Source: a virus (taxonomy: Duplodnaviria > Heunggongvirae > Uroviricota > Caudoviricetes). From it: a stretch of 37,462 nt of DNA. Within the stretch, counting starts at the first letter, position 1. Each line of letters starts with the position of its first letter. The notes under the pieces are model-generated. The model searched no databases. It was not told the DNA's origin and saw nothing but the letters and a program-made list of their open reading frames with translations. A program made the position numbers and the translations under genes. The stretch lies in the IMG/VR virus record IMGVR_UViG_2778261530_000007; one strand, 5' to 3'. Shown piece after piece: positions 6,681-37,462 of this stretch.

Positions 6681-6752
6681 TTCCTGTTCCGGGCCTTTCC
6701 TGCACCTTGCGGCGGGAGGCCTTCGCACATCTGTAACAAGAGGATTGCCGCA

Positions 6753-7118: not shown

Positions 7119-7124
7119 ATCACT

Positions 7125-12702: not shown

Positions 12703-12799
12703 GCACAATAGTGCACAAATTTGCACAATTTTTTTGAACAACTTTTTACCCTTCCGGCCCGCGTGGCGACTGGATCCGTCAAGGATCCGTGCGTGCACA
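12703..12799. repeat. Direct repeats of TGCACAA at 10-bp phasing (12703..12728) with a further copy at 12793..12799, plus GGATCCGT-N3-GGATCCGT (12772..12790), in the non-coding region between phd and Q
   Basis: Read directly from the sequence; function unknown (operator, packaging or centromere-like site). Confidence 0.35.
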
Positions 12800-13103
12800 A
12801 AAAAACGCGCTTTTTCTGCGCGCAGGTGACGGGGGAACAGCCCGCGTTTCAGGGGGTAAATAGCATCCCCTGAACGATGTCGCAGCGACACAACAGAATG
12901 GCTGTATTTCTCACGCTGAGCGTGAAAAAGACGTGAGGGCTTTTGATTTGATGGGGTGAAAGGTAAGGCCGTCAAAATCGCACTGAGACGGCGAGAACAT
13001 GCAGTCAACGCGGTGGGATTGCGTAAGAGTCTGACTGTCGATGATGGCAATAAGCAGGAAAGCGTCGTGAAATTATCTGATTGATACAGGAGCTGGAGAG
13101 TCG

Positions 13104-13126
13104 GGGCATAAATTTTTTATGCCCCG
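13104..13126. other. Perfect 10-bp-stem hairpin GGGGCATAAA-TTT-TTTATGCCCC just downstream of Q on the minus strand
   Basis: Inverted repeat read from the sequence; may be the Q/P operon terminator or part of the packaging region. Confidence 0.35.
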
Positions 13127-13152
13127 GCGAAGCAGCAGACAAGCGAAGCGCG

Positions 13153-15950: not shown

Positions 15951-16104
15951 TGCTCCCCCTGAGTAATTACAGGAAGATTACCCGCGCGCGAAACTGTTCT
16001 CCTTAACCCCCTGTTCTGGCCGTTTTCTTACAACAAAAGCCCTTTGTATCAGCCTGTTACGCTTTGCCATCATGACTGAAGAACCAGTCAGAGGGGCAAA
16101 AACT

Positions 16105-16941: not shown

Positions 16942-16964
16942 TAAGACAAAGGAGCAAATTTTTT

Positions 16965-18017: not shown

Positions 18018-18062
18018 TCAACTCACGGCGGGCATCATGCCCGCCTGTAACGGAGAGAAAAA

Positions 18063-18863
18063 ATGATTACTCCTGCACAACAACACTGGCAGAACGTGAT
18101 GGCACAGCGCGCAGGTCGGGCGAATGAAGGCGTGGACCACGCCGCGCGTACCGCGCATGAAGAGGTGCTGTATCGTCTGCGTCTGGCACAGGCCCGGCTT
18201 AAGGGCGTACAGGCCAGAAGCGCGAAAGCCGCCATCAAAAAAGAGTTGTTGCCGGATTTTTCCGGCTGGATTGAGGGAACGCTGGAGGCTGACGGCGGGC
18301 AGCAGGATGAAGTGATTGCCACGCTGATGGTGTGGGCGATTGACTGCGGCGATCTTCCGCTTGCGTTGCGTATTGGTGCGTATGTGGTCCGTCATAACCT
18401 CATTATGCCGGATAACTTTGGCCGTACTGCTGCCACGGTACTGACCGAAGAAATCTGCAACCCGGTACTGACGCAGGCCGGGACGGATGCTGACGCGGAT
18501 TTGTCCGCCTTTATCGAACCACTGGACACCCTCCGGGAGATTGTCACAGACCAGGACATGCCGGACGAAGTGCGCGCCAAATTATGCAAGGCGTGCGCCT
18601 TTGCCCGTCGTGGTCTGACCGATGCGGACAGCATGGCCCTGTCACTGAAGCTGCTGCGCGAAGCGATGCACCTGAACCCGAACGCAGGTGTGAAACGCGA
18701 GATTGCAACCCTTTTCCGCACCCTGAAAAAAGCCGATTCCGCAGCCGCACCAGAAGACGCCAGCACACCGCAGGCGCAGGACGAAAGCAGCAAAAGTAAA
18801 AAGACAACGCGGAAGCCTGCAACACGAAAAACCACCGCGACGCAGAAGGCGAAGCGCGGTTAA
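18063..18863 (+). CDS. M: Terminase small / endonuclease subunit (P2 gpM)
   Basis: Similarity to P2 M as recalled (DMPDEVRAKL, basic C-terminal tail). Confidence 0.9.
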   Translation: MITPAQQHWQNVMAQRAGRANEGVDHAARTAHEEVLYRLRLAQARLKGVQARSAKAAIKKELLPDFSGWIEGTLEADGGQQDEVIATLMVWAIDCGDLPLALRIGAYVVRHNLIMPDNFGRTAATVLTEEICNPVLTQAGTDADADLSAFIEPLDTLREIVTDQDMPDEVRAKLCKACAFARRGLTDADSMALSLKLLREAMHLNPNAGVKREIATLFRTLKKADSAAAPEDASTPQAQDESSKSKKTTRKPATRKTTATQKAKRG

Positions 18864-18964
18864 CGACTGACCCCGTCAGCGGGCGGCGTGCGCGGTGTTC
18901 CGGTTTGACTCCGTGACCGTTTACACCGCGCACCCACCGCCCGATTTTTTCAGGAGTGAACCCC

Positions 18965-19459
18965 ATGAGTATGGTTGCCAGAACCAACCCCGGCCCCGCA
19001 GAGGACGACATCACCGATACCGATGATGGTGATACCCGTATTTCAGCGGGTGCATTCTGGCCGGATATTGTGCTGCGTGAGCTGCGTCTGGCGATACGAC
19101 TGCCGGGCCGTGTGACCACCTCCCGCCTGCTGCATACCGCCACCGGGGCCGTGGCACACGTTACCCGCGAGCTGGAAGCGTGGCAGCAGGAACAGCAGGC
19201 GGCTGGCCATCAGACGCTGGCCGATGTTCCGGCCCCCGTAATTAACGGAGAAAGCGTCAATCTCTGGCACTGGCGCAATGCTGTTTATACCGCCACACGC
19301 GCCCTGATTCTGGAGCGTTACCGCGATGCGGACACAACGGATAAGGGCGACCGCCGGGCGGACGCACTGGATATACAGACATCGGATTTGTGGCGCGATG
19401 TGAGCTGGGCCATCTCTGACATTCTGCGCCGCCCGCGAATTTTTGCGGAGTTGTGCTGA
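18965..19459 (+). CDS. L: Head completion / stabilisation protein (P2 gpL)
   Basis: Position after M; start placed at the ATG with an AGGAG RBS (the ORF track starts 9 nt earlier at a GTG). Confidence 0.8.
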   Translation: MSMVARTNPGPAEDDITDTDDGDTRISAGAFWPDIVLRELRLAIRLPGRVTTSRLLHTATGAVAHVTRELEAWQQEQQAAGHQTLADVPAPVINGESVNLWHWRNAVYTATRALILERYRDADTTDKGDRRADALDIQTSDLWRDVSWAISDILRRPRIFAELC

Positions 19460-19659
19460 TGAAAGTGAAGGCACTGGAAGGCGACACCGTAGATTCGCTC
19501 TGTTTCCGGTACTACGGCACGACGCAGGGCGTCACCGAAAAGGTGCTGGATGCCAACCCCGGACTCTGTCAGCAGGCATTTCTGGACGCCGGGCAGGAAG
19601 TGGAGATGCCGGAGCCGGAGAAGAAGAAACGAGAAATGATTCAGTTGTGGGGGGGGTAG
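19459..19659 (+). CDS. X: Tail protein X (P2 gpX)
   Basis: Similarity to P2 X as recalled (ALxGDTxDxxCxRYYG, ANPGL); start overlaps the L stop. Confidence 0.8.
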   Translation: MKVKALEGDTVDSLCFRYYGTTQGVTEKVLDANPGLCQQAFLDAGQEVEMPEPEKKKREMIQLWGG

Positions 19660-19661
19660 CA

Positions 19662-19985
19662 GTGAGCACCATTCAAACAGGGATCACAGAGCAGGTTATT
19701 GCGTGGCTCTTTGACCACCTGCCAACGGTGTATGCAGTAGGCGCGGCGGTCAGCATTTCCGCGCTGATGAGTCTTTATGACGGGCGGACACTGGTTCAGA
19801 CCGTAACGGGATCGCTGGCGTGCGGCGTTCTTGCCATGGCCGTGGCCGGGTCGTTGCGCTTCTTCGGGTTTCCTGAAGATGCCGTGACGTTTATCGGCGC
19901 ATCAATCGGTTTTATGGGCGCAGAGAAAGCACGCGACAAGGTTATTGCGGCCTTTAATCGCAGGGTGAAGGAGAAGGACGAATGA
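19662..19985 (+). CDS. Putative holin (three predicted TM segments), probable GTG start
   Basis: Three hydrophobic helices and a charged C-terminus; immediately upstream of the endolysin. Confidence 0.55.
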   Translation: MSTIQTGITEQVIAWLFDHLPTVYAVGAAVSISALMSLYDGRTLVQTVTGSLACGVLAMAVAGSLRFFGFPEDAVTFIGASIGFMGAEKARDKVIAAFNRRVKEKDE

Positions 19986-20374
19986 GCAACACATTTAAAT
20001 TCAGCAGCCGGAGCGAAAAGAATTTGCAGGGCGTAAATCCTGATCTGGTGAAAGTGACCCGACGGGCACTGGAAATCTCGGAAGTGGATTTTGGTATCAC
20101 CGAAGGGTTGCGCAGCCGTTACCGCCAGAAGCAACTTGTGGCCACAGGTAAGAGCCAGACCATGAACAGCCGCCACCTTACGGGGCATGCCGTGGATGTT
20201 GTGGCTTATATCGGCAGCCAGGTGTCATGGGAATGGCCGCTGTACGAAAAAATCGCAGCAGCATTCAGACAGGCCAGCCGGGAACTGAATATTCCGGTGG
20301 AATGGGGCGGCGACTGGAAGACCCTGAAAGACGGACCGCATTTTCAGTTACCACACGGAGCCTATCCGGCATGA
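19982..20374 (+). CDS. Endolysin, peptidase M15 (VanY-like L-alanyl-D-glutamate endopeptidase) type
   Basis: Zinc-site motif SRHLTGHAVDV; position in the lysis cassette. Confidence 0.8.
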   Translation: MSNTFKFSSRSEKNLQGVNPDLVKVTRRALEISEVDFGITEGLRSRYRQKQLVATGKSQTMNSRHLTGHAVDVVAYIGSQVSWEWPLYEKIAAAFRQASRELNIPVEWGGDWKTLKDGPHFQLPHGAYPA

Positions 20375-20778
20375 AGCTCTGGCCCACGCTGGGCGTCGCT
20401 TTCCTTCTGATTGCCGCATGGGGAACATCCATGCGTCTGTCGTGGTCGCTGGGCCGGGAGAACGCCAGAAACGAAGCGCAGGCCAGCGCCCTGAAAAGTA
20501 CCGTCGACACCCTGAATATCATCAGCACCGGGGTACAGGATATGCAGCAGGTGCTGGCGCAACTCCGCGTGGAAAATCAACAGCGAAATCAGGACGGAGA
20601 GGCCAGACGTGAACAGCTACGCAACGATATTGCAAAAGATGAATGCGCCCACGCTTTGCCTGACGCTCGTTTTACTGACAGGTTGCGCAGGCACGCAGAA
20701 CGCGCCACGGCCAGCGCCGTCAGTCCGGCTTATACCGCAGACGCTGACCATACCGGTAACGCCTCCCCCCTTCCCTGA
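20371..20778 (+). CDS. lysB: Inner-membrane spanin (LysB / Rz-like)
   Basis: N-terminal TM helix then coiled-coil; contains an embedded out-of-frame lipoprotein ORF. Confidence 0.7.
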   Translation: MKLWPTLGVAFLLIAAWGTSMRLSWSLGRENARNEAQASALKSTVDTLNIISTGVQDMQQVLAQLRVENQQRNQDGEARREQLRNDIAKDECAHALPDARFTDRLRRHAERATASAVSPAYTADADHTGNASPLP

Positions 20779-20929
20779 TACTCCCACATGGGGAAATCTC
20801 GGTATATGGGGCGACCGCCTTCTGGATGCACTGGAAACCTGTAACGCGGATAAACGGGCCATTGAATTACTGGAACAGCGCAGGCTGCAACGACTGAACA
20901 ACGAGGATAACAACCATGCTGAAAACTGA
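20609..20929 (+). CDS. lysC: Outer-membrane lipoprotein spanin (LysC / Rz1-like), embedded in and extending beyond lysB; start may be 20639
   Basis: Lipobox LLTGC, proline-rich mature region, +1 frame overlap with lysB. Confidence 0.65.
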   Translation: MNSYATILQKMNAPTLCLTLVLLTGCAGTQNAPRPAPSVRLIPQTLTIPVTPPPFPDTPTWGNLGIWGDRLLDALETCNADKRAIELLEQRRLQRLNNEDNNHAEN

Positions 20930-21383
20930 TTCCCTGCGTGAAGCCATGACCCGTTCATGCCGATGGTGTCAGGCCAACCCGGAAAAATTCACCATTTTCG
21001 TGGAGAGCGGCAACATTGAAACGACCGGAGAAACTCCCTCGTTTGTTTACCGCTATCAGATGGTGATGTTTGTCATGGATTACGCCGGAGAGCTGGACGA
21101 CCTCACGCTGCCGCTGCTGGCGTGGTTATCCGAAAATCAGCCACAGTTGTTGCTCAATCCGGAGCGTAATCAGGACATCAAATTTTCCGCCGTTATCAAT
21201 GACGATGACAGCGCCGATCTCCTGTTTACGCTTCCCCTGCGGGAACGCGTTCGCATTACGCGCAGCAGTCAGGGGACACCGCAGGCAGAACACCTGCCGG
21301 AGCCAAAACCCCGCCTGCCATCTTCCGAAGGCGACTGGTCGCATGTATTCCAGGATGTGACGTGGGGTGAAAGCGATGGATAA
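20916..21383 (+). CDS. R: Tail completion protein R (P2 gpR)
   Basis: Similarity to P2 R as recalled (MLKxDSLR, LAWLxENQP). Confidence 0.85.
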   Translation: MLKTDSLREAMTRSCRWCQANPEKFTIFVESGNIETTGETPSFVYRYQMVMFVMDYAGELDDLTLPLLAWLSENQPQLLLNPERNQDIKFSAVINDDDSADLLFTLPLRERVRITRSSQGTPQAEHLPEPKPRLPSSEGDWSHVFQDVTWGESDG

Positions 21384-22011
21384 GGCATTCACCCGCGTGG
21401 ATGAAACCTTTGAGGCCATCCGCGACAGCCTGAATCAGCAGGCCATCAATAACATCGCCAGAAAGCTGGCACAGGATTTACGCCGCGCCCAGCAGGCGCG
21501 CATCCGGTCACAGAAAGCGCCGGACGGGACCGCGTGGACACCACGCAGACGCCGCGTAACCCGGATACAGGAGCGCATTCGCTTTATCTGGAATAACGAA
21601 GCACGCACGCTGAAAAACTGGCATCACGACACGGGGAAATACGGGCGAACCATCACCGGGTGGGATGAGGATAAAAACACCATCCGCACGTTTTACCGGG
21701 ATGACATCGACCGCTTTCTGGAAATACGCACCCGGCGCATCAACCAGGACAGCACAAAGCGCGTCCCCATGTTCGTAAAACTGCGCACCGCCCGCTACCT
21801 GAAAGCCCGTGCAGATGCTTCCGGTGTGACGGTGGGTTACAGCGGCGTGGCCGCACGTATTGCACGCGTTCATCAGTTCGGTGAGCGCGATCAGGTTGCG
21901 CCGGGCATTTTCACCGATTACCCGGTACGTGAGCTGCTGGGTATCAGCCAGGCAGATGAGCGCCTGATTTATAACACGGTGCTGGGCCGGATTGCGGAGG
22001 CTGTACGGTGA
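21376..22011 (+). CDS. S: Tail completion / virion morphogenesis protein (gpS position)
   Basis: Position between R and V; ATG overlaps the R stop. Confidence 0.7.
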   Translation: MDKAFTRVDETFEAIRDSLNQQAINNIARKLAQDLRRAQQARIRSQKAPDGTAWTPRRRRVTRIQERIRFIWNNEARTLKNWHHDTGKYGRTITGWDEDKNTIRTFYRDDIDRFLEIRTRRINQDSTKRVPMFVKLRTARYLKARADASGVTVGYSGVAARIARVHQFGERDQVAPGIFTDYPVRELLGISQADERLIYNTVLGRIAEAVR

Positions 22012-22589
22012 GCGCAGAACTCATGCGACTGCTGAGCAACATCATTCGCACCGGGATCATCTCTGAAGTTGATGAGAAGTCCTGGCGCGTGCGCGTTCGC
22101 AGCGGCGAACTGGAAACAGGCTGGTTGCGCTGGAACACCACGCGCGCGGGAGCCTTCAATGTGTGGCTGCCGCCATCACCCGGCGAACAGGTGGTAATTG
22201 CCTGCATTGGCGGCAACCCGGAAACCGCCATGATAATTGGCAGCCTGTGGAGTGATGCCAGTCCGGCCCCCGGCAAAAGCCTGAAAGAAATCGTGGTCAG
22301 CGCGCCGGATGGCGCGGTGTTCCGCTACGACGCGGACGCTGGCGCACTGAGCGCCAGCGGCATGAAAACAGCCACCCTGCAGGCATCCGTCAGCGTGACA
22401 CTGGATACGCCCGTCGTGGAATGCACAGACCTTCTGAGAACAGCGACGCTTGACGTCACAAAAGGGGGAAAGATGAGCGGCAATATCACGCACAGCGGCG
22501 GCGATTTCACCTCAAACGGCATCACAGTGCATACGCATAAGCACGGTGGCGTTAAAGGTGGCAGCGATTCGACAGGAGGCCCGCAGTGA
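22008..22589 (+). CDS. V: Baseplate spike protein V (P2 gpV)
   Basis: Similarity to P2 V as recalled (IRTGII, HTHKHGG near the C-terminus); GTG start overlapping the S stop. Confidence 0.88.
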   Translation: MSAELMRLLSNIIRTGIISEVDEKSWRVRVRSGELETGWLRWNTTRAGAFNVWLPPSPGEQVVIACIGGNPETAMIIGSLWSDASPAPGKSLKEIVVSAPDGAVFRYDADAGALSASGMKTATLQASVSVTLDTPVVECTDLLRTATLDVTKGGKMSGNITHSGGDFTSNGITVHTHKHGGVKGGSDSTGGPQ

Positions 22590-22936
22590 CAACCCGCTAC
22601 ACAGGAATGAATCCGGACGGGACGGGAAACCTGAACGATACGGAGCACCTGAAACAGTCAGTCAGGGACATCCTGACCACCCCGCTGGCAAGCCGGGTTA
22701 TGCGACGGGAATATGGCAGCCTTGTGCCTGATTTAATTGACGAACCCATGAATAACACCACGCGTCTGCAATGCATGAGTGCTGCCGTGATTGCGCTGAC
22801 ACGATGGGAACCCCGCATTGCCCTGGACGCCATCGACGTTGTCTGGAAGGCAGGAGGCCGCGCCGGGGTGACGCTGTCGGGCACTGTCATGCAGACCATG
22901 CAGAATGTTGAATTAACCATCACGCTAAGGGAGTAA
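22586..22936 (+). CDS. W: Baseplate protein W (P2 gpW)
   Basis: Similarity to P2 W as recalled (RYxGMN, RVMRRxYGSL, WEPR). Confidence 0.88.
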   Translation: MTTRYTGMNPDGTGNLNDTEHLKQSVRDILTTPLASRVMRREYGSLVPDLIDEPMNNTTRLQCMSAAVIALTRWEPRIALDAIDVVWKAGGRAGVTLSGTVMQTMQNVELTITLRE

Positions 22937-22939
22937 ATC

Positions 22940-23836
22940 ATGCCTGCTGTTGACCTTTCCCAGTTACCGGAAACCGCCATCATCGCGGAGCCTGATTTTG
23001 AGGCAATTCTGGCTGACACAAAGGCCATGATGATTGCGTCCTATCCTGCCGAACAGCGTGAAGCCGTCTCCGCCGCGCTGGAGCTGGAATCGGAACCCCT
23101 GAACGTTATCGCTCAAACCATGTCTTTTCGTGAAATGCTGTTACGCCAGCGGGTCAATGAGGGTGCACGCGCCTGCATGCTAAGCCACAGCGCCGGGACA
23201 GACCTGGACAACCTCGCGGGCAATATGAACACAAAGCGCCTGGTTATCACTCCGGCAACGGATACCACCGACGCAGTGATGGAAAGTGACACCTCGCTGA
23301 GACTACGGGCGCAACGGGCATATGACGGTCTGAGTGTTGCTGGCCCGTCAGGTGCATACGAGTATTTTGCACGCAGCGCCAGCGGTCTGGTGCGCGATGC
23401 GCGGGCTATCAGTCCGTCTCCGGCCTGTGTGACGGTTTCCATCCTGTCCACTGAAGGCGACGGCACAGCAACGGAGGCGTTGCTTAATACCGTTCGCGCC
23501 GTTCTGAATGCAGAGGATACCCGCCCGGTGGCCGACCGCCTGACCGTACAGAGCGCCAGAATCGTGACATGGCGGCTGAATGCAAAACTGTACTTTTACC
23601 CCGGCCCGGAATCCGAACCTATTCTGGCCGCGGCTGAATCGTCGTTCAGGAAGTGGCTGGCTGAGCAGGGGCTTATCGGTCAGGACGTGGCGTTGTCCGC
23701 CATTGCTGCCGCACTGCATGTGCACGGTGTGCAACGCGTGGAGATAATCGAACCCACACAGAATATGTCCATCAGCGACATACAGGCGGCGCGCTGTGAG
23801 TCATTCACCATCAGCGAAGGTGGACGCAATGAGTAA
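22940..23836 (+). CDS. J: Baseplate protein J (P2 gpJ)
   Basis: Size and position between W and I. Confidence 0.85.
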   Translation: MPAVDLSQLPETAIIAEPDFEAILADTKAMMIASYPAEQREAVSAALELESEPLNVIAQTMSFREMLLRQRVNEGARACMLSHSAGTDLDNLAGNMNTKRLVITPATDTTDAVMESDTSLRLRAQRAYDGLSVAGPSGAYEYFARSASGLVRDARAISPSPACVTVSILSTEGDGTATEALLNTVRAVLNAEDTRPVADRLTVQSARIVTWRLNAKLYFYPGPESEPILAAAESSFRKWLAEQGLIGQDVALSAIAAALHVHGVQRVEIIEPTQNMSISDIQAARCESFTISEGGRNE

Positions 23837-24356
23837 TTCGTTATTACCACCATCAGCCAGCAATTTCATGCGTTGTGCCGAAGCCGTCGGAACACGCATT
23901 ACAGACATTCCGGTAGACCTCAACACGCTGTGGTCGCCGGACACCTGCCCGGTGCATCTGCTGCCTTATCTCGCCTGGGCATTTTCCGTTGACCGCTGGG
24001 ATCGCAACTGGCCGGAAGAGACAAAGCGACAGGTGATTCGTGATGCATGGCTGATACACCGACACAAGGGAACCATCAGCGCACTGCGCCGGGCCATTGA
24101 GCCGCTGGGATACCTCATTCGTGTGTCTGAGTGGTGGGAGTTCGGCGGAGAACCTGGAACATTCAAGGTTGATGTTGGCACGCTGGACAGTGGTGTGACC
24201 GAGGAAATGTATCTGGAAATGGAACGGCTGATTGCCGACGCCAAACCCGCAAGTCGCCACCTTATCGGCCTGAACATTATCCAGGACATTCCTGGCTATC
24301 TGTATACAGGCGGTGTGGTCTGTGATGGTGATGTTATTACTGTTTATCCCGGATAA
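23829..24356 (+). CDS. I: Baseplate / tail protein I (P2 gpI)
   Basis: Strong similarity to P2 I as recalled (LWSPDTCP, LLPYLAWAFSVDRWD, ERLIADAKPASRHLIGLNI, GDVITVYPG). Confidence 0.9.
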   Translation: MSNSLLPPSASNFMRCAEAVGTRITDIPVDLNTLWSPDTCPVHLLPYLAWAFSVDRWDRNWPEETKRQVIRDAWLIHRHKGTISALRRAIEPLGYLIRVSEWWEFGGEPGTFKVDVGTLDSGVTEEMYLEMERLIADAKPASRHLIGLNIIQDIPGYLYTGGVVCDGDVITVYPG

Positions 24357-24366
24357 GTGAGAAACA

Positions 24367-27141
24367 ATGAGCACGAAATTTAAAACCGTTATCACTACTG
24401 CCGGAGCCGCAAAGCTGGCAGCTGCCACTGCCCCCGGCGGGAAAAAAGTAACCCTGTCTGCAATGGCCGTGGGTGACGGTAATGGCAAATTGCCGGTGCC
24501 GGATGCCGGTCAGACGAAACTGGTGCATGAGGTCTGGCGTCACGCTCTGAATAAAGTCAGCGTGGATAACAAGAATAAAAACTATATCGTGGCTGAACTG
24601 GTTGTACCGCCCGAAGTGGGCGGCTTCTGGATGCGTGAGCTTGGTCTGTATGACGATGCCGGAACACTGATTGCGGTATCCAACATGGCAGAAAGCTATA
24701 AACCAGAACTGGCTGAAGGCTCCGGACGTGCGCAGACCTGCCGCATGGTTATTATTGTCAGTAACGTGGCGTCTGTTGAGCTGACTATTGATGCCAGCAC
24801 AGTGATGGCGACGCAGGATTACGTCGATGACAAAATCGCAGAGCATGAGCAGTCCCGCCGCCATCCTGACGCCACGCTGACAGAAAAAGGTTTTACTCAG
24901 TTAAGCAGTGCAACAAACAGCACCAGTGAAAAGCTGGCGGCAACGCCAAAAGCGGTCAAGGCAGCAAATGACAACGCAAATTCACGTCTGGCGAAAAATC
25001 AGAACGGTGCAGATATCCAGGATAAATCAGCTTTTCTGGACAATATTAGTGTTACCAGCCTGACGTTTATGAAAAACAACGGCGAAATGCCGGTTGATGC
25101 TGATCTGAATACATTTGGTCCTGTTAAGGCTTATTCAGGTATCTGGTCTAAAGCAACGTCCACCAACGCAACACTGGAGAAAAATTTCCCGGAAGATAAT
25201 GCTGTCGGTGTGCTTGAGGTTTTTACTGGCGGCAATTTTGCAGGCACGCAACGCTATACCACACGTGACGGAAATTTGTATATCCGCAAACTCATTGGAA
25301 CATGGAATGGTAATGATGGACCATGGGGAGCATGGCGCCATGTTCAGGCTGTAACGCGTGCTCTAAGTACGACCATTGACCTTAACTCTCTCGGTGGCGC
25401 AGAACATTTAGGTCTATGGAGAAACAGCAGTTCAGCAATAGCTTCTTTTGAACGACATTACCCTGAGCAGGGAGGAAACGCGCAGGGCATTCTGGAAATT
25501 TTCGAAGGTGGGCTATATGGACGCACGCAGCGTTATACAACCCGTAACGGGACTATGTATATTCGCGGCCTGACAGCCAAATGGGATGCAGAAAATCCAC
25601 AGTGGGAAGACTGGATCCAAATTGGTTATCAGACCAGTAGTACCTTCTATGAGGATGACCTGGATGATTTGATGTCTCCGGGTATTTACAGTGTGACAGG
25701 CAAAGCGACCCACACCCCAATCCAGGGGCAGTCTGGTTTTCTGGAAGTCATCAGGCGCAAGGATGGTGTCTATGTTTTGCAACGTTACACGACCACAGGA
25801 ACCAGCGCAGCTACAAAAGACCGTTTATATGAGCGAGTGTTTCTTGGTGGCTCATTTAACGCGTGGGGGGAGTGGCGACAGATTTATAACTCAAACTCTT
25901 TGCCGTTAGAGTTGGGCATCGGTGGCGCTGTGGCAAAACTCTCCAGCCTGGACTGGCAGACCTACGACTTTGTGCCGGGCAGTCTGATAACCGTTCGGCT
26001 TGATAACATGACCAACATTCCCGACGGTATGGACTGGGGCGTCATTGATGGCAACCTGATAAACATCGCAGTTGGTCCGAGTGATGATTCCGGTACGGGG
26101 CGCTCAATGCATGTATGGCGCAGCACTGTAAGTAAAGCCAACTACCGCTTTTTTATGGTGCGTATTTCAGGAAATCCGGGAAGCCGCACGATCACGACAA
26201 GACGTGTGCCAATTATCGACGAAGCTCAGACATGGGCGGCGAAACAAACCTTCAGCGCCGGTCTTTCAGGCGAACTGTCCGGCAATGCGGCTACAGCTAC
26301 AAAGCTGAAAACGGCAAGGACAATTAACGGCGTGAAATTTGATGGTTCTGGCAATATCAATATTAATACGCTGGTATCCAGGAATCGCGTTGCTGCATTA
26401 AGCGGGAGTGAGAAGGGGGTGCCTGGTATTCAGATGTATGAGGCATATAACAATGGCTACCCTTATGCCTATGGCAATGTGCTTCATCTTACGGGGGTAT
26501 CCGCAACCGGAGAAGGTGAGTTACTTATCGGCTGGAGTGGAACCAGCGGTGCTTATGCACCAGCATATATTCGTTCAAGGCGGGATACAGATGGCGCTCA
26601 ATGGTCTGGATGGGCACAGCTTTATACGACAGCACATAAACCATCCGCTGGTGATGTTGGTGCTTTACCGATATCCGGTGGCACTATTACAGGCGGTTTA
26701 ACTGTTGATGGGGAAGTTGTTTCAAGGTCAGCAAACGGTTATCGCATCGTATGTGGGAACTATGGATTCTTTATCCGAAATGATGGTAATTTCACCCATT
26801 TCATGTTGACCAACTCCGGTGACAGTATGGGGGGATGGAGTAGTTTAAGCCCATTCTATATTCAGAATTCCACTGGTGGAGTCACTATTGGCCATGGATT
26901 AACTGTTGCCGGACAAGTTGTGCCAAGTAACTACGGTAATTTCGACGGGCGTTATGTGATGGATGTTCGCCTGGGAACACGTGTTGTTCAATTGATGGCG
27001 CGTGGCGGGCGTTATGAGATGGCCGGACACACAATTACCGGATTAAGAATTATTGGTGAAGTTGATGGCGATGATGAAGCCATCTTCAGACCGATACAAA
27101 AATACATCAATGGCACATGGTATAACGTCGCACAGGTGTAA
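24367..27141 (+). CDS. H: Tail fibre protein H, mosaic: P2-like N- and C-termini with a divergent repeat-containing central region
   Basis: N-terminus ([25 protein letters not shown]) and C-terminus ([63 protein letters not shown]) match P2 H as recalled. Confidence 0.9.
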
Positions 27142-27144
27142 GTT

Positions 27145-27672
27145 ATGCAGCATTTAAAAAATATAAGGTCAGGAAATCCGAAAACCATTGAACAATATCA
27201 ACTAACAAAAAAATTCGACGTTATCTGGTTATTTTCAGAGGATGGAAAAAACTGGTATGAAGAGGTAAAGCATTTTCAGGAAGACACAATAAAGATTGTT
27301 TACGATGAGAATAATATTATTGTCGCCATTACCAAAGATGCATCAACGCTTAATCCAGAGGGGTTCAGCGTCGTTGAAGTCCCTGATATTACCGCCAACC
27401 GACGAGCTGATGACTCAGGTAAATGGATGTTTAAGGACGGTGCCGTGATTAAGCGGATTTATACGGCAGACGAACAGCAGCAACAGGCGGAGTCAAAAAA
27501 GGCAGCTTTGCTTTCCGAAGCTGAATCCGTGATTTTGCCGCTGGAGCGCGCTGTCAGGCTGAATATGGCAACAGATGAGGAGCGCACACGACTGGAAGCC
27601 TGGGAACGCTACAGCGTTCTGGTCAGCCGTGTGGATACAGCAAAGCCCGAATGGCCACAAAAGCCTGAGTAA
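27145..27672 (+). CDS. G: Tail fibre assembly chaperone (P2 gpG family)
   Basis: Position directly after H; typical length (175 aa). Confidence 0.8.
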
Positions 27673-27890
27673 AAATTAAGCTCCGATATCGGGCCTTCTC
27701 TCATTCTGGTTGTTCGGGAAACGTTACTGGCAGGCCGGAGGTGTCTGTGGATTCGACTTTCTACGCGTAGAGCATCCATTCGGTTAATTTTTGTTTATTC
27801 TCGTCGGAAATGATGCCCAGCCGTAGCTGTGAGCCCCATAGGCGATATACAGACTGAAGAAACAACCAGGCAGATCCAGGAAAAAGAAAA

Positions 27891-27918
27891 CCGCTAATCT
27901 GAACATTAGCGGTTTTTT
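27891..27918. terminator. Bidirectional rho-independent terminator (CCGCTAATCTGAACATTAGCGG flanked by an A-run and a T-run) between convergent G and U
   Basis: Perfect hairpin with TTTTTT on the plus strand and TTTTCTTTTT on the minus strand. Confidence 0.65.
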
Positions 27919-27926
27919 GCGTTAAT

Positions 27927-28421
27927 TCAGAACAGCCCTTTAACTGAACTGGTTGCGCTGTTAAGAGATGATGTCACCTTATCTTTGAAGCCGGACAGCA
28001 TATCGCTGAACGATGAGGATTGCAGGCGCTCCCGCAAATCCTCATCACAGCGTTCAAGGGTCAGTGAAAATTCTATCTTTTTCGCCTTACCGTAGCGATC
28101 AAACTCGGAACGGGTCGTATTCGTTTCGGTCAGAACATACATGCCGTAAATCTGCCCGACGCCATCAATAAGAGGCCAGGGGCGTCCTGTATACGCCTGC
28201 GTGGTCAGCAGCGACAGCGACACTTCACCACCTGTAATTTCAGGATAAAGCACACCAGAAAGAACAATACGATCATCGCCTGCCCCGATATACTGCCAGC
28301 TTGCTGAACGGTTAACGCGTTCATTTTTCACATGTCGCCAGCTTTTATTTTGCTGTAACTGCTGATGCGGCAATGTGCGCAGCTCAAAAACAAACATGCC
28401 GTAGATCATCATCATGGCCAT
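27927..28421 (-). CDS. U: Tail protein U (P2 gpU)
   Basis: Similarity to P2 U as recalled (FVF..P, GAGDDRIVLSGVLYPE, WPLI). Confidence 0.88.
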   Translation of the reverse strand: MAMMMIYGMFVFELRTLPHQQLQQNKSWRHVKNERVNRSASWQYIGAGDDRIVLSGVLYPEITGGEVSLSLLTTQAYTGRPWPLIDGVGQIYGMYVLTETNTTRSEFDRYGKAKKIEFSLTLERCDEDLRERLQSSSFSDMLSGFKDKVTSSLNSATSSVKGLF

Positions 28422-28427
28422 GACTCC

Positions 28428-31277
28428 TCAATCTTTATCGTAAAAACTGCCACGTCCGGCACGGGCGCGCCGTTCCACCTCTGCCCTGACCATTTCACCG
28501 ACCAGTTTCGCCAGTTCGCGGGGATTCTGCGTAACAACGTTATGCAGATGAACATGAATTTCACCACCAAATCCGGAGGCAACAGGCTCCCGGTTACGGG
28601 AAGTTACAGGAACTGATGCCACTGGCGATCGTATGGCCTCCGCCACCGGGCGGGAGCTGGCCGCAACAACAGGGACCAGCGCCGGAGGCAGCGGAGCCGG
28701 GACCACGGGTGTGATATTAATTGCGGGGGCAGGCTTACTGACATGCGCAATCTTCCGCTCCTGCCACTCCCCACGAACAGCAAGTGCGCGGGGCAGGTTC
28801 TTAAAGACAATATCGCCGGGGCCAATGCGTTTTTTCGTCTCATCAACCAGCTTACCTGTGTTATCAGCAATTTTGCTGAGCCTGCGTAGCGTACCGGTAT
28901 TGTTGTCTGTGAGCGGTTTGTTGTCTTTGGGTTTATCGCCTTTTTTGTCGTCGACCTTATCTGACGGGGCCGGGCCGGGAGTCCATGGTTTCTGAACCAT
29001 TTTCTTGAGAACCGGATCCCATTCCCACATTACAGGAGCCTTTGAAGCGTTCTCTATTTTCTTTCTCGCCCGTTCCGCTTCATCCGGAAGCACTCCGAGC
29101 TTTTCAAGTATCCACGCCAGTGAATCCATCAATGCTTTTGTTGGCGTCAGGACAAGCTCTATCGCTCCACCGAGTACCCTGCCGAATACCTCGCCAGCAC
29201 TGGTACATTTATCCAGCGTTTCCTTGCTGGACTCCATCGGTGACAGCAGCGATTTAAACCAGTTAAACACCTGGCTGATCCCGCTTCCGATTGTGTCAAA
29301 AACAGGACCAAACCGTTCAAAGGTTTCGCGCAACGGGGTCAGCCTTTCCATAATCCCGCTGAACACCCCGGCAAAAAATGCCCTGATGGGATCCCAGTAT
29401 TTCCAGATAAGAACGGCAGCTCCGGCAAGCGCAGCCACAATAAGACCAACCGGACTGAACAACGCCCCGATGGCGCCTCCCAGTAAAGAAACGGAACCCG
29501 TCACCATTCCCCACAGCGCAGGCAACACCCTGACGACATTCATTGACCGGGTAAGAATGTCAAAACCAAGACGCAGGGTGGCCAGCTTCCCGTAAAGCAC
29601 CCCAATAACCAGCGACAACGAGCCAATCGTTGCAGTCATTGCCAGCAACGCACCGCCTGCTATCAGTAGCTGGCGCGTCAGTACCGGATGGGCCTGCGCC
29701 AGCGAGGTGATTTTTTCAAGCACCCGCGTGAGCCACTGCGTGACAGAACGCAGCGGACCGTCAACCAGATCACTGATGCGAATACGAAGACCTTCCCATG
29801 CGCTGTCGAGATTTTTCAGGTCCCCATCAAGATTATCGGCCATTACTTTTGCGACGCGATCGGCCTCTCCCCTTGCCCCCTGCAATTCTCTGGTCAGTTT
29901 TTGCAGCTCTCCTGAACCAGCCGCCGCAACAAGCGTCTGCAAACCAACGAACGCCTCTTCTCCGGCGATGCCCTTGAAGAAGGAAACCTGGTCCACCTGT
30001 CCGTATTTTTGTGTCGCCTTATAGAGATCAAGCAGCACATCCTCCATCGGGCGCATTTTGCCTCTGGCGTCAGCAACTGACACCCCCAGCTCTTTCAGTG
30101 CATCAGCCGCAGCTTTTGGCGGTGATGCAAGGCGGGACAGACTTGCGCGCATGGCCGTACCAGCATCGCTTCCGCGAAGACCATTATTGGCAAGCATCCC
30201 GGCCATGGCCGCCGCTTCTTCAAGACTGATACCAAGTTTTGCGGCAACCGGACCGGTATACTTCATGGTTTCGCCCAGCGCGCGTAAATCAGTATTGGTC
30301 CGGGTGAATGCTGCTGTCAGCGTATCGCCAACACGGTCCATTTGATCGGCTGTCAGGTTGAACTGTGTGAGGATATTGGAGCCTATATCAGCCGTCTCGC
30401 CGAGTTCGACGCCACCTGCCAGCGCCATATTAAGAACACCGGGCAATGCGGCCTGAATGGCCTGCGGAGTAAAACCAGCCATTGCCAGAAAGCTCTGCCC
30501 ACTGGCGGCATCACTCGCAGTAAACTGTGTTTCAGAGCCAAGTTTTAACGCCTGCTCACGCAGCGCCTTAAACTGCGGGCTGTTTTTGTCGATTCGCGTC
30601 AGTGCCTGAACGCGGGACATCTCTTTGCCGAACCCGATCGCAGGCTGCAAAAAACGCCCGGCAGCATAGCCGCCCGCCGTTGCCGCACCAATTGCCAGCG
30701 CACCACCTGTTTTCAGTTTTCCCGCTGTTTCCTGCGCGCGCGAATACCGCTCACGCGCCCGTGTTACACGCGCAAGCGCCTGCCGTTCGCGTTCAAGCTG
30801 GTTGTTGTACTGTTCGGTGCGTCTGATGGCCTGCTGGATGGTGTTATCGCTGCCTGTCAGGGAAATGCCGTGGCGTTTCAGCTCTCCGCCAAGCTCCCGC
30901 ATTTTCTGAATTTCCCGTGTGCGCGATTCATTCAGGCGTTCAAGCCGGGTGCTTAACTGCTGCATCAGCTTTTGTTGTTTTTCGCTGAGCACTGTACCCG
31001 TGCGTTGTAACTGATTAAGGGCGTTAAGCTGGCGTCGTGCTTTCAATATGCCAGCATCCGCTTTACTGACAGCGTCACGGGCGCGCTCAAATGAACGCGC
31101 CTGACGCTCGAGATTTTTGATCGCCCCCTGCGTTCGCTGGATGGAGTCACCAAACTGCCCCATCAGGCGGCGGGCGTTTTCGGCAGGCCGGGTCAGCCTG
31201 TCAACGGCGCTGAAAGCGACCCGGATGTCAAGAGTCTTCATTGTCTGCATTCCCGCTGCGAAGTGCCGCCCGCTCAC
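28428..31277 (-). CDS. T: Tail tape measure protein (P2 gpT)
   Basis: 949 aa, coiled-coil N-terminus, Gly/Ala-rich hydrophobic core; position between E and U. Confidence 0.9.
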   Translation of the reverse strand: MSGRHFAAGMQTMKTLDIRVAFSAVDRLTRPAENARRLMGQFGDSIQRTQGAIKNLERQARSFERARDAVSKADAGILKARRQLNALNQLQRTGTVLSEKQQKLMQQLSTRLERLNESRTREIQKMRELGGELKRHGISLTGSDNTIQQAIRRTEQYNNQLERERQALARVTRARERYSRAQETAGKLKTGGALAIGAATAGGYAAGRFLQPAIGFGKEMSRVQALTRIDKNSPQFKALREQALKLGSETQFTASDAASGQSFLAMAGFTPQAIQAALPGVLNMALAGGVELGETADIGSNILTQFNLTADQMDRVGDTLTAAFTRTNTDLRALGETMKYTGPVAAKLGISLEEAAAMAGMLANNGLRGSDAGTAMRASLSRLASPPKAAADALKELGVSVADARGKMRPMEDVLLDLYKATQKYGQVDQVSFFKGIAGEEAFVGLQTLVAAAGSGELQKLTRELQGARGEADRVAKVMADNLDGDLKNLDSAWEGLRIRISDLVDGPLRSVTQWLTRVLEKITSLAQAHPVLTRQLLIAGGALLAMTATIGSLSLVIGVLYGKLATLRLGFDILTRSMNVVRVLPALWGMVTGSVSLLGGAIGALFSPVGLIVAALAGAAVLIWKYWDPIRAFFAGVFSGIMERLTPLRETFERFGPVFDTIGSGISQVFNWFKSLLSPMESSKETLDKCTSAGEVFGRVLGGAIELVLTPTKALMDSLAWILEKLGVLPDEAERARKKIENASKAPVMWEWDPVLKKMVQKPWTPGPAPSDKVDDKKGDKPKDNKPLTDNNTGTLRRLSKIADNTGKLVDETKKRIGPGDIVFKNLPRALAVRGEWQERKIAHVSKPAPAINITPVVPAPLPPALVPVVAASSRPVAEAIRSPVASVPVTSRNREPVASGFGGEIHVHLHNVVTQNPRELAKLVGEMVRAEVERRARAGRGSFYDKD

Positions 31278-31766
31278 GCCAGCTAACCACTTCGCCGGGC
31301 GTCATCATGAAGATTTCGGCGGGCGACCAGTTAAAAATGGCGGCGATATCTGCCACCAGATCTTCGATGTGCTCAAAGCACACCAGGGTGATTACGCTGC
31401 CGTCTCCTGCACGCTCTTCGCGCCAGAGTCTGGCTCGCTCATAAAATTTACAGCCACAGCGCACAACTGAATAAAATCGCGTGACGACATTTTTTTAATC
31501 ATCACTTCATCCAGTCGTGGCGAGGTCACGCGAGGCAACAGCGTAAACATGGTATCCGCTTTCAGATTCAGCACATCAGACAGCGACAGACCACGCAGGG
31601 ATCCAGCCTGCTCAATAGCCCCGGTGATCTCCACATACGTGATTTTTTCGCCACCACGCTCAATTGGTCGGGTCAGTTTTACGCCACGTTCGACAGCCAT
31701 ATCCTCACCTGCCGTCACATCATCCGCCACGGTGTTATTCCGGGTTTCAGTATCGATGTCTTTCAT
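31228..31766 (-). CDS. E': E+E' programmed -1 frameshift product (E body fused to the E' extension); predicted slippery site A7 at plus-strand 31490..31496
   Basis: The E' frame is -1 relative to E and opens at a TAA inside ATT-AAA-AAA-ATG (hand-checked); P2 is known to make E+E' by frameshifting. Confidence 0.6.
31392..31766 (-). CDS. E: Tail assembly chaperone E (P2 gpE)
   Basis: Position between FII and T; overlapping -1 frame ORF downstream. Confidence 0.85.
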   Translation of the reverse strand: MKDIDTETRNNTVADDVTAGEDMAVERGVKLTRPIERGGEKITYVEITGAIEQAGSLRGLSLSDVLNLKADTMFTLLPRVTSPRLDEVMIKKMSSRDFIQLCAVAVNFMSEPDSGAKSVQETAA

Positions 31767-31821
31767 CAGTTGTCTCCTTTTCAGTCAGAGGCGACGCACT
31801 GCGCCGCCTGCATATTACTTA

Positions 31822-32334
31822 TCAGCCAAGCCCGAGCGCGGAACGGATGCGATCGGGCACAATGTCCTTGCCGTCCTTCCGGTAAATGAAGTTCAGCAGG
31901 TCAATCTCCCACAACGGGCGATCGTTAACACTCAGCTTGTAGTAGGTGTTTTTAATGGCGTAAGTGTGTGATGTGGCTTCGCCCTGTTTGGCTTCCCCCA
32001 TATCAATTTCCGTCACACGTCCGCGCATTTCGACTTCATACAGGTCGCTTTCTGCATCGGTGTAGTATTCACCCGCAAAACGCAGCAGCGTGCCGTCAAT
32101 CGTGCCGCCATACTTAAGGAACAGCGCACGAACAGCTCCCCCCATAACAAAGCTCGCATCAAGCGCGGAGTCGTCCAGACCGAGATCAATACTTACCGCA
32201 CCCATCATGCCACCACCCCGGTAGCTGTCGGTTTTGCGCGTCAGCTTAGGCAGAGTGACGGACGTCACCTTACCCACTTCGTTTTCACCATCCACAAACA
32301 GCGTAAAAAAGCGAAGATGTTTTGGTACAGCCAT
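31822..32334 (-). CDS. FII: Tail tube protein FII (P2 gpFII)
   Basis: 170 aa, position directly after the sheath gene. Confidence 0.88.
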   Translation of the reverse strand: MAVPKHLRFFTLFVDGENEVGKVTSVTLPKLTRKTDSYRGGGMMGAVSIDLGLDDSALDASFVMGGAVRALFLKYGGTIDGTLLRFAGEYYTDAESDLYEVEMRGRVTEIDMGEAKQGEATSHTYAIKNTYYKLSVNDRPLWEIDLLNFIYRKDGKDIVPDRIRSALGLG

Positions 32335-33518
32335 CAGGCACCTCCCAGCACCGCAAATGCGGGACCAAAGAATTCATCAGTAAACGACTGGTAAAGCTCC
32401 ATGTCTTCCAGCGGGGGAACAGGCGTATATTTGTAGCGAATACGCACGCGCCCCTGACGTAAATTCGTGGTGCCGTTATCCACCACGTCATACCAGCACT
32501 CCGCACCAATCAGTTTCCCGGCAGTAACCAGCGAATCCAGTTTTGCCCTGATGGCACTGATAACATCCTTCACGTTCGCAGGCGTCAGTGGACTGTCGAT
32601 GGTTTCAAACTGCGCTTCCGCAATTGAATCAGCCAGCACCTGTGCGGTTCGGGTATACACCTCAAAGATGTAGGCGTTCGTTTCCGGTGTGCGGTTGCCC
32701 CAGAAGCGGAACCCGTTGCGACGAATAATGGTCGTGATTTCTTTGTTATTGAGGCTGTTGGCATCACTGTCTTCGGCCTGCAACGACCAGAACACATGCC
32801 TGGACATTCCCAGCACATTTTTAACCGGAACGTTGGACAGCGATTTGTGCCAGCCCTGCTCATGGTCAATGTACGCACGAAGGCCGCACGCATAAGCAGG
32901 CGCGGGGAACGTTTCGTTTTTGCCACTTTTCGGGTTGTAGGCGATGAAGTCAGGCCATAAGAGCATCACCTCACGTTCGTTGAATTTCTGGCGGTAGGTA
33001 ATCGCCTCAGCCATCGTGTTACAACCATGACATGTGGCATACACAAACGCGCGCAGTTTACCCGCAATCACGCACAGGGATTTTGTCACCGCCTCCGTGT
33101 CCAGCTCCGGCGCGGCCAGAATACGCGGACGGTATCCGATGCTTTCATCCTGCTCTGCAACAAGCAGCGCATACATCCCCGTATAGCTGCCGTCAGATTC
33201 AGAACCACCGATAACCAGTTGATCCTGCGTCTTTCCGTTTTCTTCTTTGTGTTCAGCCACGCGAACGACGATCACCTTTGTGCTCACCTGGTCTGCGATG
33301 GCCTTAAGCGCACGATAAAGCGTCCCCGTTGTTCCGCATTTTCCCAGCACGTCATTGACGCGGGTCAGCAGTGTGGGCTTGTTCAGCGGGAACAGCTCCG
33401 CATCCGCATCATCCGCCGTTGCCACGATACCGATAACGCTGGAATCAACATCGTTAATCGCTGTTACCAGGTCGGTATTTTCCGTAACACGGGCACCATG
33501 AAAACGAGTTTCACTCAT
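32334..33518 (-). CDS. FI: Tail sheath protein FI (P2 gpFI)
   Basis: Similarity to P2 FI as recalled (FPLNKP, LQAIADQ, KLRAF, YRQ, WPDF, LRAxIDxEQGWHK, LIRRxGFRFWGNRT, YTRTAQV, YxYTPVPPLE). Confidence 0.92.
   Translation of the reverse strand: MSETRFHGARVTENTDLVTAINDVDSSVIGIVATADDADAELFPLNKPTLLTRVNDVLGKCGTTGTLYRALKAIADQVSTKVIVVRVAEHKEENGKTQDQLVIGGSESDGSYTGMYALLVAEQDESIGYRPRILAAPELDTEAVTKSLCVIAGKLRAFVYATCHGCNTMAEAITYRQKFNEREVMLLWPDFIAYNPKSGKNETFPAPAYACGLRAYIDHEQGWHKSLSNVPVKNVLGMSRHVFWSLQAEDSDANSLNNKEITTIIRRNGFRFWGNRTPETNAYIFEVYTRTAQVLADSIAEAQFETIDSPLTPANVKDVISAIRAKLDSLVTAGKLIGAECWYDVVDNGTTNLRQGRVRIRYKYTPVPPLEDMELYQSFTDEFFGPAFAVLGGA

Positions 33519-36169: not shown

Positions 36170-37462
<1,293 letters not shown>

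Follow-up and report, generated by a model that had tools for sequence, protein, structure and literature searches.

A recombined P2-family tail fibre with P2-like ends and predicted pyocin-type knobs in the tail fibre gene H of a P88-like Escherichia coli prophage

Introduction

When a tail fibre has P2-like ends and a foreign middle, is the exchanged middle the part that recognises the host? This question is raised by gene H of the viral sequence IMGVR_UViG_2778261530_000007, the whole 37,462-nucleotide stretch of which is referred to below as the window. The original prediction, made from the sequence of the window, was that the central repeats of the fibre are its receptor-binding region, that their exchange switched the host range and that the adjacent chaperone G adapted to them. 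Here we map the modules of this fibre, trace their donors and weigh that reading against others.

Results

The ORF lies exactly where originally placed (Table 1), and is the tail fibre gene of a P88-like (Xuanwuvirus, Peduoviridae) E. coli prophage, whose gene order is that of PhiR44_2 and P88 and whose backbone is 97% identical to these phages over 11.6 kb. A profile search puts H in PHROG 381 (tail fibre, E 7e-196), and the ORFs flanking it match Baseplate_J, Tail_P2_I and Caudo_TAP. NCBI already lists an identical protein as an E. coli "phage tail protein", and titles many homologues "pyocin knob domain-containing protein"; the exact protein is known under a generic name and is a new allele within a known fibre type. 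Among 5426 complete E. coli genomes, 2 contain the full H combination at a query coverage of at least 80%; H is the sole member of its own 90% protein cluster. An NCBIfam scan of the H and G proteins gave no match, and aa 212-754 of H are without any Pfam model.

Table 1. Coordinates of the fibre gene H, its predicted modules and its neighbours in the window (nucleotide positions; residues are those of H).
Feature	Position	Strand	Evidence
gpI baseplate protein	23829..24356	+	Probable ATG start within GTG ORF from 23796; Tail_P2_I, E 1e-51
gpH-type tail fibre gene, whole	24367..27141	+	ORF, 924 aa; Pfam PF12571, PF03406, PF21446
Baseplate-attachment (tail-collar fibre) domain, N-terminal, aa 1-151	24367..24819	+	PF12571, E 3.6e-58, full-length model match
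Phage_fiber_2 repeat, aa 170-211	24874..24999	+	PF03406, E 3.7e-21; resembles Mu S 111-175 (5YVQ alignment)
Knob-like domain 1, aa 236-326	25072..25344	+	
Knob cassette, phage-899 type	25114..25912	+	About 98-100% to 899 DNA; FY26 50-89% per 100 nt, mostly 64-71%
Knob-like domain 2, aa 327-419	25345..25623	+	z = 30 against knob 1
Knob-like domain 3, aa 420-507	25624..25887	+	z = 5.7 and 3.1 against knobs 1 and 2; 32% identity; same modelled strand pattern
Shaft domain, fold unassigned, aa 508-636	25888..26274	+	No Pfam; PHROG tail-fibre families only; AF2 confidence <50
Linker motif, highly conserved, aa 637-660	26275..26346	+	L.GNA.TATKL.T.R.IN.V.FDG; 17 invariant columns in 34-sequence alignment
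Distal shaft segment, aa 661-763	26347..26655	+	Weak knob-profile match; T4 gp34 alignment of aa 733-780
T4 gp34 C-terminal trimerisation-type domain, aa 764-858	26656..26940	+	PF21446, E 2.3e-24; 5YVQ, 4UXE and 5NXF alignments; Mu S 252-344
P2/Mu-type C-terminal tip, aa 859-924, plus stop codon	26941..27141	+	Last 70 aa 94% to P2 H; aligns to Mu S 385-503 (5YVQ)
gpG tail-fibre assembly protein (chaperone), 175 aa	27145..27672	+	PF02413, E 2e-35
Hairpin plus T-run, terminator-like, between convergent G (+) and U (-)	27887..27916	.	Consensus scan, weak: 1 site against 0.8 expected in shuffles

H has the hallmarks of a P2 gpH-type fibre, namely a PF12571 N-terminus, a position after J and I, a Caudo_TAP gene next to it and a tip of the P2 H/Mu S type, but it is not colinear with P2 gpH across its whole length. 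Residues 1-207 and 830-924 are respectively 85% and 80% identical to P2 H (669 aa, NC_001895), and the last 70 are 94% identical, whereas aa 208-829 gave no significant alignment with it. The expectation of P2-like ends around a different middle was therefore correct, both ends (207 and 95 aa) being somewhat longer than had been estimated. Nor is H a repeat-free protein that follows P2 H throughout: aa 208-829 have no P2 counterpart and the repeats within them are real.

These repeats are marked by the motifs G[VIF]LE[VI], beginning at aa 281, 374 and 457, and QRYTT, beginning at aa 295, 388 and 472; the motif cores of the three copies occupy nt 25207-25884. Three tandem repeats of about 50 aa had been predicted. 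The three copies stand, but each repeat is a domain some 90 aa long, of which the motif of about 47 aa is just the conserved core; the copy starts are spaced 93 and 83 aa apart. BLASTP of H against itself returned the identity match alone, and we instead compared local alignment scores of the copies with those of 500 shuffles of one partner. Copies 1 and 2 scored 182 against 27 +/- 5 for the shuffles (z = 30), while copy 3 reached only z = 5.7 against copy 1 and z = 3.1 against copy 2 and is thus much more diverged. In a three-way alignment the pairwise identity is 32-38%, with 78-90 positions aligned. A chance origin of the repeat was considered and rejected. At the DNA level, neither a direct-repeat search nor Tandem Repeats Finder detected the knob repeat in H, the output being limited to short pairs of the kind that arise by chance, along with a 20-nt microsatellite.

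Copies that lie adjacent, head to tail and with a clear common motif could have arisen not long ago by tandem duplication within this particular gene, through slippage or unequal crossing-over. This scenario, to which we attach very little probability, is refuted by the divergence of the copies, by the missing DNA repeat and by orthology: all three copies have orthologues in 899, PhiR44_2 and L-413C, and copy 1 is closer to copy 1 of other phages than to its own copy 2. As judged from these alignments, the three knobs go back to an old triplication and not to a recent duplication.

An AF2 monomer model of the repeats (pLDDT 70-86) has five to six strands per unit, and at this model level each unit has the size (about 85-95 aa) and the antiparallel five- or six-strand sheet of a pyocin-type knob. 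Foldseek matched the model to 6CL5 and 6CL6, the R1/R2 pyocin fibre knobs (E 6e-7 and 2e-6), and it is structurally similar to Knob1 and Knob2 of these entries; these are also the relatives listed by Buth et al. for the pyocin knobs (PMC6116203). Profile comparison gave E 0.01 for gp47 of 9B45 and 0.016 for 6CL5, borderline values that unrelated proteins reach equally; the middle of P2 H was not matched (probability 0.3%). On the strength of the monomer model, itself of moderate confidence, we assign aa 236-507 to pyocin-type knob domains. The most likely role of the knobs is in the folding and spacing of the trimer, and they may also bind glycans in an accessory capacity.

The AF2 monomer model of aa 500-924 had a mean pLDDT of 51, unfit for a fold search, and the distal half was assigned by sequence alignment to the Mu S and T4 gp34 structures (Table 1). 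The knob profile found one weak match there with hhalign (aa 733-753, E 0.0013); as this covers just 21 columns, we make no claim for aa 661-763, which are possibly a fourth, diverged knob-like domain.

Identity per 100-nt window and mismatch positions against donor phages and prophages revealed sharp switches of DNA type along the locus, the mismatch maps pinning the junctions to a few bases. Positions 23896-24195 are of P88 type (96-97% identical), 24215-26195 of 899 type (mostly 96-100% per 100 nt, dipping to 84-86% around 24896-25095) and 26196-27595 of FY26 type (98-100%); identity to P2 DNA attains 81-90% solely from about 26996 onward. The junction from backbone to P2-type sequence falls inside the gpI gene, at about 24195-24215; gpI is 98% identical to that of PhiR44_2 and 89% to that of P88, its C-terminal 50 or so residues being P2-like. 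The conserved linker sits inside the zone of the switch from 899 to FY26 type (26196-26346), mismatches to 899 starting at 26196 and becoming dense past 26313. The fibre DNA of strain FY26 is about 99-100% identical over 25913-27587, and its H protein is 90% identical overall, differing almost exclusively at aa ~257-514. The FY26 homologue was also considered as a pseudogene; this was rejected, its ORF being intact.

H is thus clearly a recombinational mosaic with P2-like ends, as predicted, assembled from donors (P88/PhiR44_2, phage 899, strain FY26) that match it at 96-100%. The search of its central region against other phage fibres, which the original prediction had called for, found the knob allele of 899, with three-knob orthologues in PhiR44_2 and L-413C. 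The C-terminal part of gpI and the N-terminal part of H make up one module, the knob cassette another and the distal shaft a third, and the tip forms the last together with G. Within this arrangement the knob triplet behaves as an exchangeable cassette, H being the FY26 fibre with the 899 knob allele. Mosaicism of this sort is familiar from P2-family fibres, and the present case is real but ordinary.

Which of these modules might recognise the host? Several observations favour the central repeats. The middle of H is entirely non-P2, strongly diverged knob alleles have been exchanged between otherwise identical fibres, the second knob of R-type pyocins is among their most variable, putatively specificity-determining regions (PMC6116203), and Garcia et al., according to PMC7460101, credited the mosaic H for the specificity of L-413C. 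Against this reading, the distal end of the fibre has remained a conserved P2-like tip, which aligns to the distal domains of Mu fibre S (5YVQ). Moreover, L-413C, with a three-knob middle, and P2, which has no knobs, depend on identical LPS-core residues when infecting Y. pestis (PMC3182234). This common receptor was measured on Y. pestis rather than E. coli, and the tip of L-413C is just 79% identical to the present one. Synonymous divergence (pS) is saturated at 0.70-0.84 for knobs 2 and 3 against PhiR44_2 and for all three against L-413C, while in the N-terminal segment of H it is 0.03-0.18. With synonymous sites so saturated, a Nei-Gojobori analysis found no positive selection on the knobs; since dN/dS was at most 0.36 where measurable, there is no sign of it at this resolution.

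The chaperone is relevant here too. G shares 89% identity with P2 G and 96% with FY26 G. Among six comparator phages, which are related and non-independent, the identity of its N-terminal 95 aa tracks that of the final 70 aa of H (Spearman 0.97, n = 6); in five of these phages the 70 aa of H just before that stretch show no relationship (19-27%). The expectation that G must match the new middle is not borne out, G being P2-like and co-varying with the tip. In Mu, the chaperone Tfa uses a variable N-terminal domain to bind the distal end of the fibre (PMC9608196). Here the tip is probably inherited together with the N-terminal half of G, as one module. On balance, we find it quite improbable that the exchange of the repeats replaced the receptor-binding region and switched the host range; the recombination that had been predicted is upheld, but the swapped part is the shaft and not the distal tip.

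Between G and U, phage P88, with the same backbone, encodes a DNA invertase along with Tfa and a second, inverted tip. H could on this ground be part of a host-range switch that works by inversion, like those of Mu, P1 and P88 itself, and its mosaic structure would then reflect alternative tips. Here the interval between G and U is just 254 bp, with no ORF for an invertase, inverted tip or Tfa, and PhiR44_2 is likewise without an invertase. Such a switch is accordingly ruled out for this prophage, and its residual probability is almost nil.

Discussion

The explanation that we consider probable is that H is a modular, recombined P2-family fibre in which the tip and G form the receptor and chaperone module and the knobs belong to the shaft. 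The map of domains, the donors with their junctions, the co-variation of G with the tip and, at model level, the knob fold are results of the analysis; which receptor is bound, how G docks and what the knobs do are inferred from them. The P2-type N-terminal domain, imported with the last 50 or so residues of gpI, would anchor the trimer to the baseplate. The shaft then comprises three tandem predicted knobs of pyocin-fibre type, each of about 90 aa, and an unassigned domain, followed outward by the universally conserved linker motif and a distal shaft of the P1 S/Mu S/T4 gp34 type. A P2-type C-terminal tip, presumably the LPS-core-binding and chaperone-docking end, closes the fibre and would contact the LPS core, and G would dock on it, folding and trimerising the fibre. 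The gene was probably put together by recurrent homologous recombination at short segments of conserved sequence.

A receptor role for the knobs is nonetheless possible, since Buth et al. found pyocin Knob2 among the most variable fibre parts and proposed it as a second binding site (PMC6116203), and the knobs may contribute to fine host specificity. It is conceivable, though unlikely, that the three knobs constitute a further determinant of specificity, open to exchange without the tip, and that they bind a surface glycan, for instance O-antigen or outer core, along the shaft. If so, P2-family fibres would hold two separately swappable recognition modules, the knobs and the tip with G, whose combinations set the host range. 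This H and that of FY26 are a natural pair differing almost only in the knob cassette, and thus a ready test of the knobs in host range. Beyond annotation the significance of the locus is slight: it is another well-mapped case of P2-family fibre reshuffling at conserved linkers. The mapped module junctions are, however, information for designing chimeric fibres or retargeted pyocins.

Among known systems, P2 gpH (NP_046775, 669 aa) shares with H its N-terminal 207 aa (85%) and last 95 aa (80%), its position after gpI and its type of G (89%), but is 255 aa shorter, and its middle has neither similarity to H nor a knob-profile match. The fibre of FY26 and of the NCTC11151 prophage is 90% identical but has another knob allele, while the fibre of phage 899 and Yersinia phage GMG73 matches through the 899-type span, knob cassette included, but has another distal shaft and a tip of 79% identity; neither type has the combination found here. 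The tandem beta-sheet knobs of about 90 aa in the contractile-tail fibre shaft of the R1/R2 pyocins (6CL5, 6CL6, 6CU2; Buth et al. 2018) are the best structural matches to our model, although the pyocin fibre has two of them rather than three, at about 17-21% sequence identity, and ends in a lectin-like foot instead of a P2/Mu-type tip. Of the S fibres of Mu and P1 (5YVQ, 8JU3), that of Mu aligns with aa 168-232 and 764-923 of H, and P1-type S proteins share 49-61% identity with the distal 273 aa of H; the C-terminal region of T4 gp34 aligns with aa 766-858. Unlike these S fibres, H has a P2-type N-terminal attachment and no invertible segment, and at the sequence level Mu S lacks the three-knob insert. 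Finally, the gpH of L-413C, for which Garcia et al. 2008, according to PMC7460101, described P2-like ends and a mosaic middle, has the same architecture (913 against 924 aa): a P2-like N-terminus of 207 aa and a P2-like C-terminus flank a non-P2 middle in both. Its knobs, which the profile places at aa 236-326, 328-419 and 420-510, are colinear with those of H, placed by it at aa 236-326, 328-419 and 420-506; the profile scores are circular because the model was built from those same sequences, but the pairwise alignment agrees. The two proteins are 66% identical overall (30-60% in knobs 1 and 3), with aa 661-857 of another type in L-413C (6-56% identical per 30-aa window), and the G of L-413C is P2-type and 90% identical; L-413C is a Peduovirus and this prophage a Xuanwuvirus.

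Setting of the fibre gene

The prophage surrounding H, the gene for a gpH-type tail fibre, is not that of P2 itself: positions 12704-24366 are 97% identical to the Escherichia phages PhiR44_2, 520873 and P88 (genus Xuanwuvirus). With an integrase gene at its left end and the host serS at its right, the window comprises essentially the whole prophage plus the chromosomal edge. The Pfam domains of H, together with the Baseplate_J and Tail_P2_I ORFs upstream and the Caudo_TAP gene (G, the tail-fibre assembly chaperone) downstream, show that H and G are the fibre-chaperone pair of a phage of the P2 family. On the minus strand (27927-33518), opposite to the P2 orientation, lie the genes for gpU, the tape measure, E/E', tube and sheath; this is the usual Xuanwuvirus (P88-like) order, with no rearrangement in the window. 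Between G and U, P88 carries a DNA invertase and a second inverted fibre tip and chaperone (5417-7565 of its locus, L004); the gap here is only 254 bp (27673-27926), as in PhiR44_2, and includes a hairpin followed by a T-run (27887-27916). Among the accessory genes are those for an SPFH/Band 7 protein, for a ParM-like actin with StbA_N and ParM C-terminal domains, and for a Fic/Doc toxin together with a Phd-type antitoxin. In the 940-aa gpA replication protein (7125-9947), the Phage_GPA domain is limited to aa 179-503, with long N- and C-terminal extensions.

Features of the window and of the fibre H
Feature	Window (nt)	H (aa)	Strand	Remark
Phage integrase	1-1008		-	left end
Accessory genes	5252-6082, 10024-10983, 11865-12628		- (Fic/Doc, Phd-type antitoxin)
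Baseplate_J and Tail_P2_I ORFs	upstream of H			Pfam
Most of gene I	23896-24195			P88/PhiR44_2 type, 96-97%; P2-type phages ~65%
899-type stretch	~24215-26195			mostly 96-100% per 100-nt window to 899
FY26-like patch within it	24951-25029			899 down to 84-86% around patch
Knob cassette	25114-25912			899 type; FY26, PhiR44_2 50-91% per window (mostly 64-73%)
Matching both 899 and FY26	25913-26195
FY26/NCTC11151-type stretch	26196-27587			98-100%; 899 down to 28-63%
P2 and P88 similarity resumes	from ~26996			81-92%
H ORF	24367-27141	1-924	+
PF12571, tail-collar fibre N-terminal domain		1-151		Pfam E 3.6e-58
Phage_fiber_2 repeat		170-211		Pfam E 3.7e-21
Repeat domains 1, 2, 3		236-326, 327-419, 420-507
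PF21446, T4 gp34 C-terminal trimerisation domain		755-832		Pfam E 2.3e-24
G, Caudo_TAP assembly protein (175 aa)	27145-27672			Pfam
Host serS (seryl-tRNA synthetase)	36170-37462		-	right end

Mosaic structure of H

The original prediction, a P2-like fibre with a non-P2 middle that arose by recombination, is confirmed in both respects. BLASTP against P2 H (669 aa, NC_001895) aligned only the two ends significantly, aa 1-207 (85% identity) and aa 830-924 (80%, rising to 94% over the last 70 residues), and gave no alignment for aa 208-829. Pairwise alignments of positions 23796-27672 with five relatives demonstrate the recombination itself, since the closest DNA relative switches from P88/PhiR44_2 to phage 899 and then to the prophage of E. 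coli FY26. The junction between the P88-type backbone and P2-type sequence, also present in PhiR44_2, falls at ~24195-24215, inside gene I (23829-24356); thus the last ~50 aa of the baseplate protein gpI were imported along with the H N-terminus, which suggests that the two interact. The switch from 899 to FY26 type occurs in and just ahead of the motif L.GNA.TATKL.T.R.IN.V.FDG (aa 637-660), whose 17 invariant positions across 34 diverse fibres make it a natural crossover point. G+C content is 44-53% in the H-G module (24200-27500) but 55-64% in the baseplate genes next to it, as would fit acquisition from a phage lineage of lower G+C.

The FY26 H gene (6001-8781 of locus L003, NZ_CP101741) is a single intact 926-aa ORF, as in NCTC11151; its division into three partial pseudogene fragments in RefSeq probably arose in annotation because the protein is a mosaic. 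The FY26 protein shares 90% identity with the window H, and nearly all the differences lie at aa ~257-514. The window H is therefore an FY26-type fibre with an 899-type knob cassette, or the reverse. Of 5426 complete E. coli genomes, 69 contain the 899-type knob allele (at least 95% identity) and only 2 the FY26-type distal segment. In NCBI the exact 924-aa protein comes from draft genomes of E. coli, under the names "phage tail protein" and "phage tail-collar fiber domain-containing protein", and is alone in its own 90% protein cluster, on 7 contigs.

Three tandem repeats, modelled as knob domains

The three tandem repeats predicted for the middle of H are indeed there (z-scores against 500 shuffles: 30 for copies 1 and 2, 5.7 for 1 and 3, 3.1 for 2 and 3), but the unit is ~90 rather than ~50 aa, the ~50-aa motif (copies beginning at aa 281, 374 and 457) being its conserved core. 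The copies are 32-38% identical to each other, and DNA-level repeat searches did not detect the knob repeat in H. Since phage 899, PhiR44_2 and the Yersinia phage L-413C all have three units at equal positions, and each window unit is nearest to its positional counterpart, the triplication must be old.

Residues 225-640 were modelled as a monomer with AlphaFold2, from an alignment of 27 homologues; the model has pLDDT 70-86 and five or six beta-strands per unit across the three units, and is unreliable past aa 508. Among its Foldseek matches the R1 pyocin fibre ranks first (E 5.8e-7) and the R2 fibre third (1.7e-6). Pyocin Knob1 and Knob2 are five- or six-strand antiparallel sheets derived from a duplication, and the same set of relatives is listed for them (Buth et al., PMC6116203). 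The sequence-profile match to knobs, taken alone, is borderline; many homologues are already named "pyocin knob domain-containing protein" in NCBI. From the modelled fold we conclude that aa 236-507 would form three tandem knob domains. A strongly diverged fourth knob-like unit is possible at aa 661-763 (26347-26655): here just 21 columns from the C-terminal part of the knob profile align with the stretch [21 protein letters not shown] (hhalign E 0.0013), which also aligns to T4 gp34.

Synonymous divergence between the knob alleles has reached saturation, with pS of 0.70-0.84 for knobs 2 and 3 against PhiR44_2 and for all three against L-413C, compared with 0.03-0.18 in the H N-terminal segment; dN/dS is at most 0.36 wherever measurable. 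The differences stem from exchange of alleles that separated long ago and evolve under purifying selection; they do not reflect local adaptation.

Tip, chaperone and receptor

The interpretation given with the original prediction is partly supported: the proposal that the swapped part is the receptor-binding region finds no support, and the prediction that G must match the new middle is wrong. It is the shaft and knobs that were replaced, and the receptor-proximal tip and G remained P2-type: G shares 89% identity with its P2 counterpart, and its N-terminal identity follows that of the tip (Spearman 0.97, n=6 related, non-independent phages). The 70 aa preceding the tip are unrelated (19-27%) in five of the six comparators, the exception being FY26.

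Identity to the window proteins in six comparators
Phage	H, last 70 aa	G, N-terminal 95 aa
FY26	99%	100%
P2	94%	92%
P88	91%	92%
899	79%	89%
L-413C	79%	91%
PhiR44_2	41%	71%

This co-variation fits the report that Mu Tfa remains attached at the distal end of the fibre, which it contacts through a variable N-terminal domain, trimerisation being driven by its conserved C-terminal domain (PMC9608196). In alignment to the solved structure 5YVQ, H aa 764-856 and 811-923 correspond to Mu S residues 252-344 and 385-503; aa 766-858 align to T4 gp34, and over its last 273 aa H shares 49-61% identity with P1-type S proteins. The distal end of H is therefore the familiar P2/Mu/P1 tip.

The same mutants in the Y. 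pestis LPS core resist both L-413C and P2; the terminal GlcNAc is the critical residue, and HepII/HepIII and HepI/Glc play a part too (PMC3182234). As the three-knob middle is present in L-413C and absent from P2, this shared requirement would most simply mean that the LPS core is bound by the conserved tip, which G folds, and that receptor binding does not depend primarily on the knobs. The exchangeable knob cassette may contribute to host specificity; the window and FY26 fibres form a natural pair differing almost only in it.

Comparison with known mosaic fibres

That tail-fibre segments are exchanged horizontally among P2, Mu, P1 and the T-even phages is textbook knowledge, reportedly dating back to the 1992 paper by Haggard-Ljungquist et al. 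on the sequence of P2 H and G. The pattern originally predicted here has already been published for L-413C gpH: as summarised in PMC7460101, Garcia et al. (2008) describe its N-terminal 207 aa and C-terminal 137 aa as P2 H-like and its middle as pieced together in turn from other enterobacterial fibres. The L-413C protein (913 aa) is colinear with the window H (924 aa) at 66% identity, and the latter adds one more allele to an established kind of mosaic fibre.
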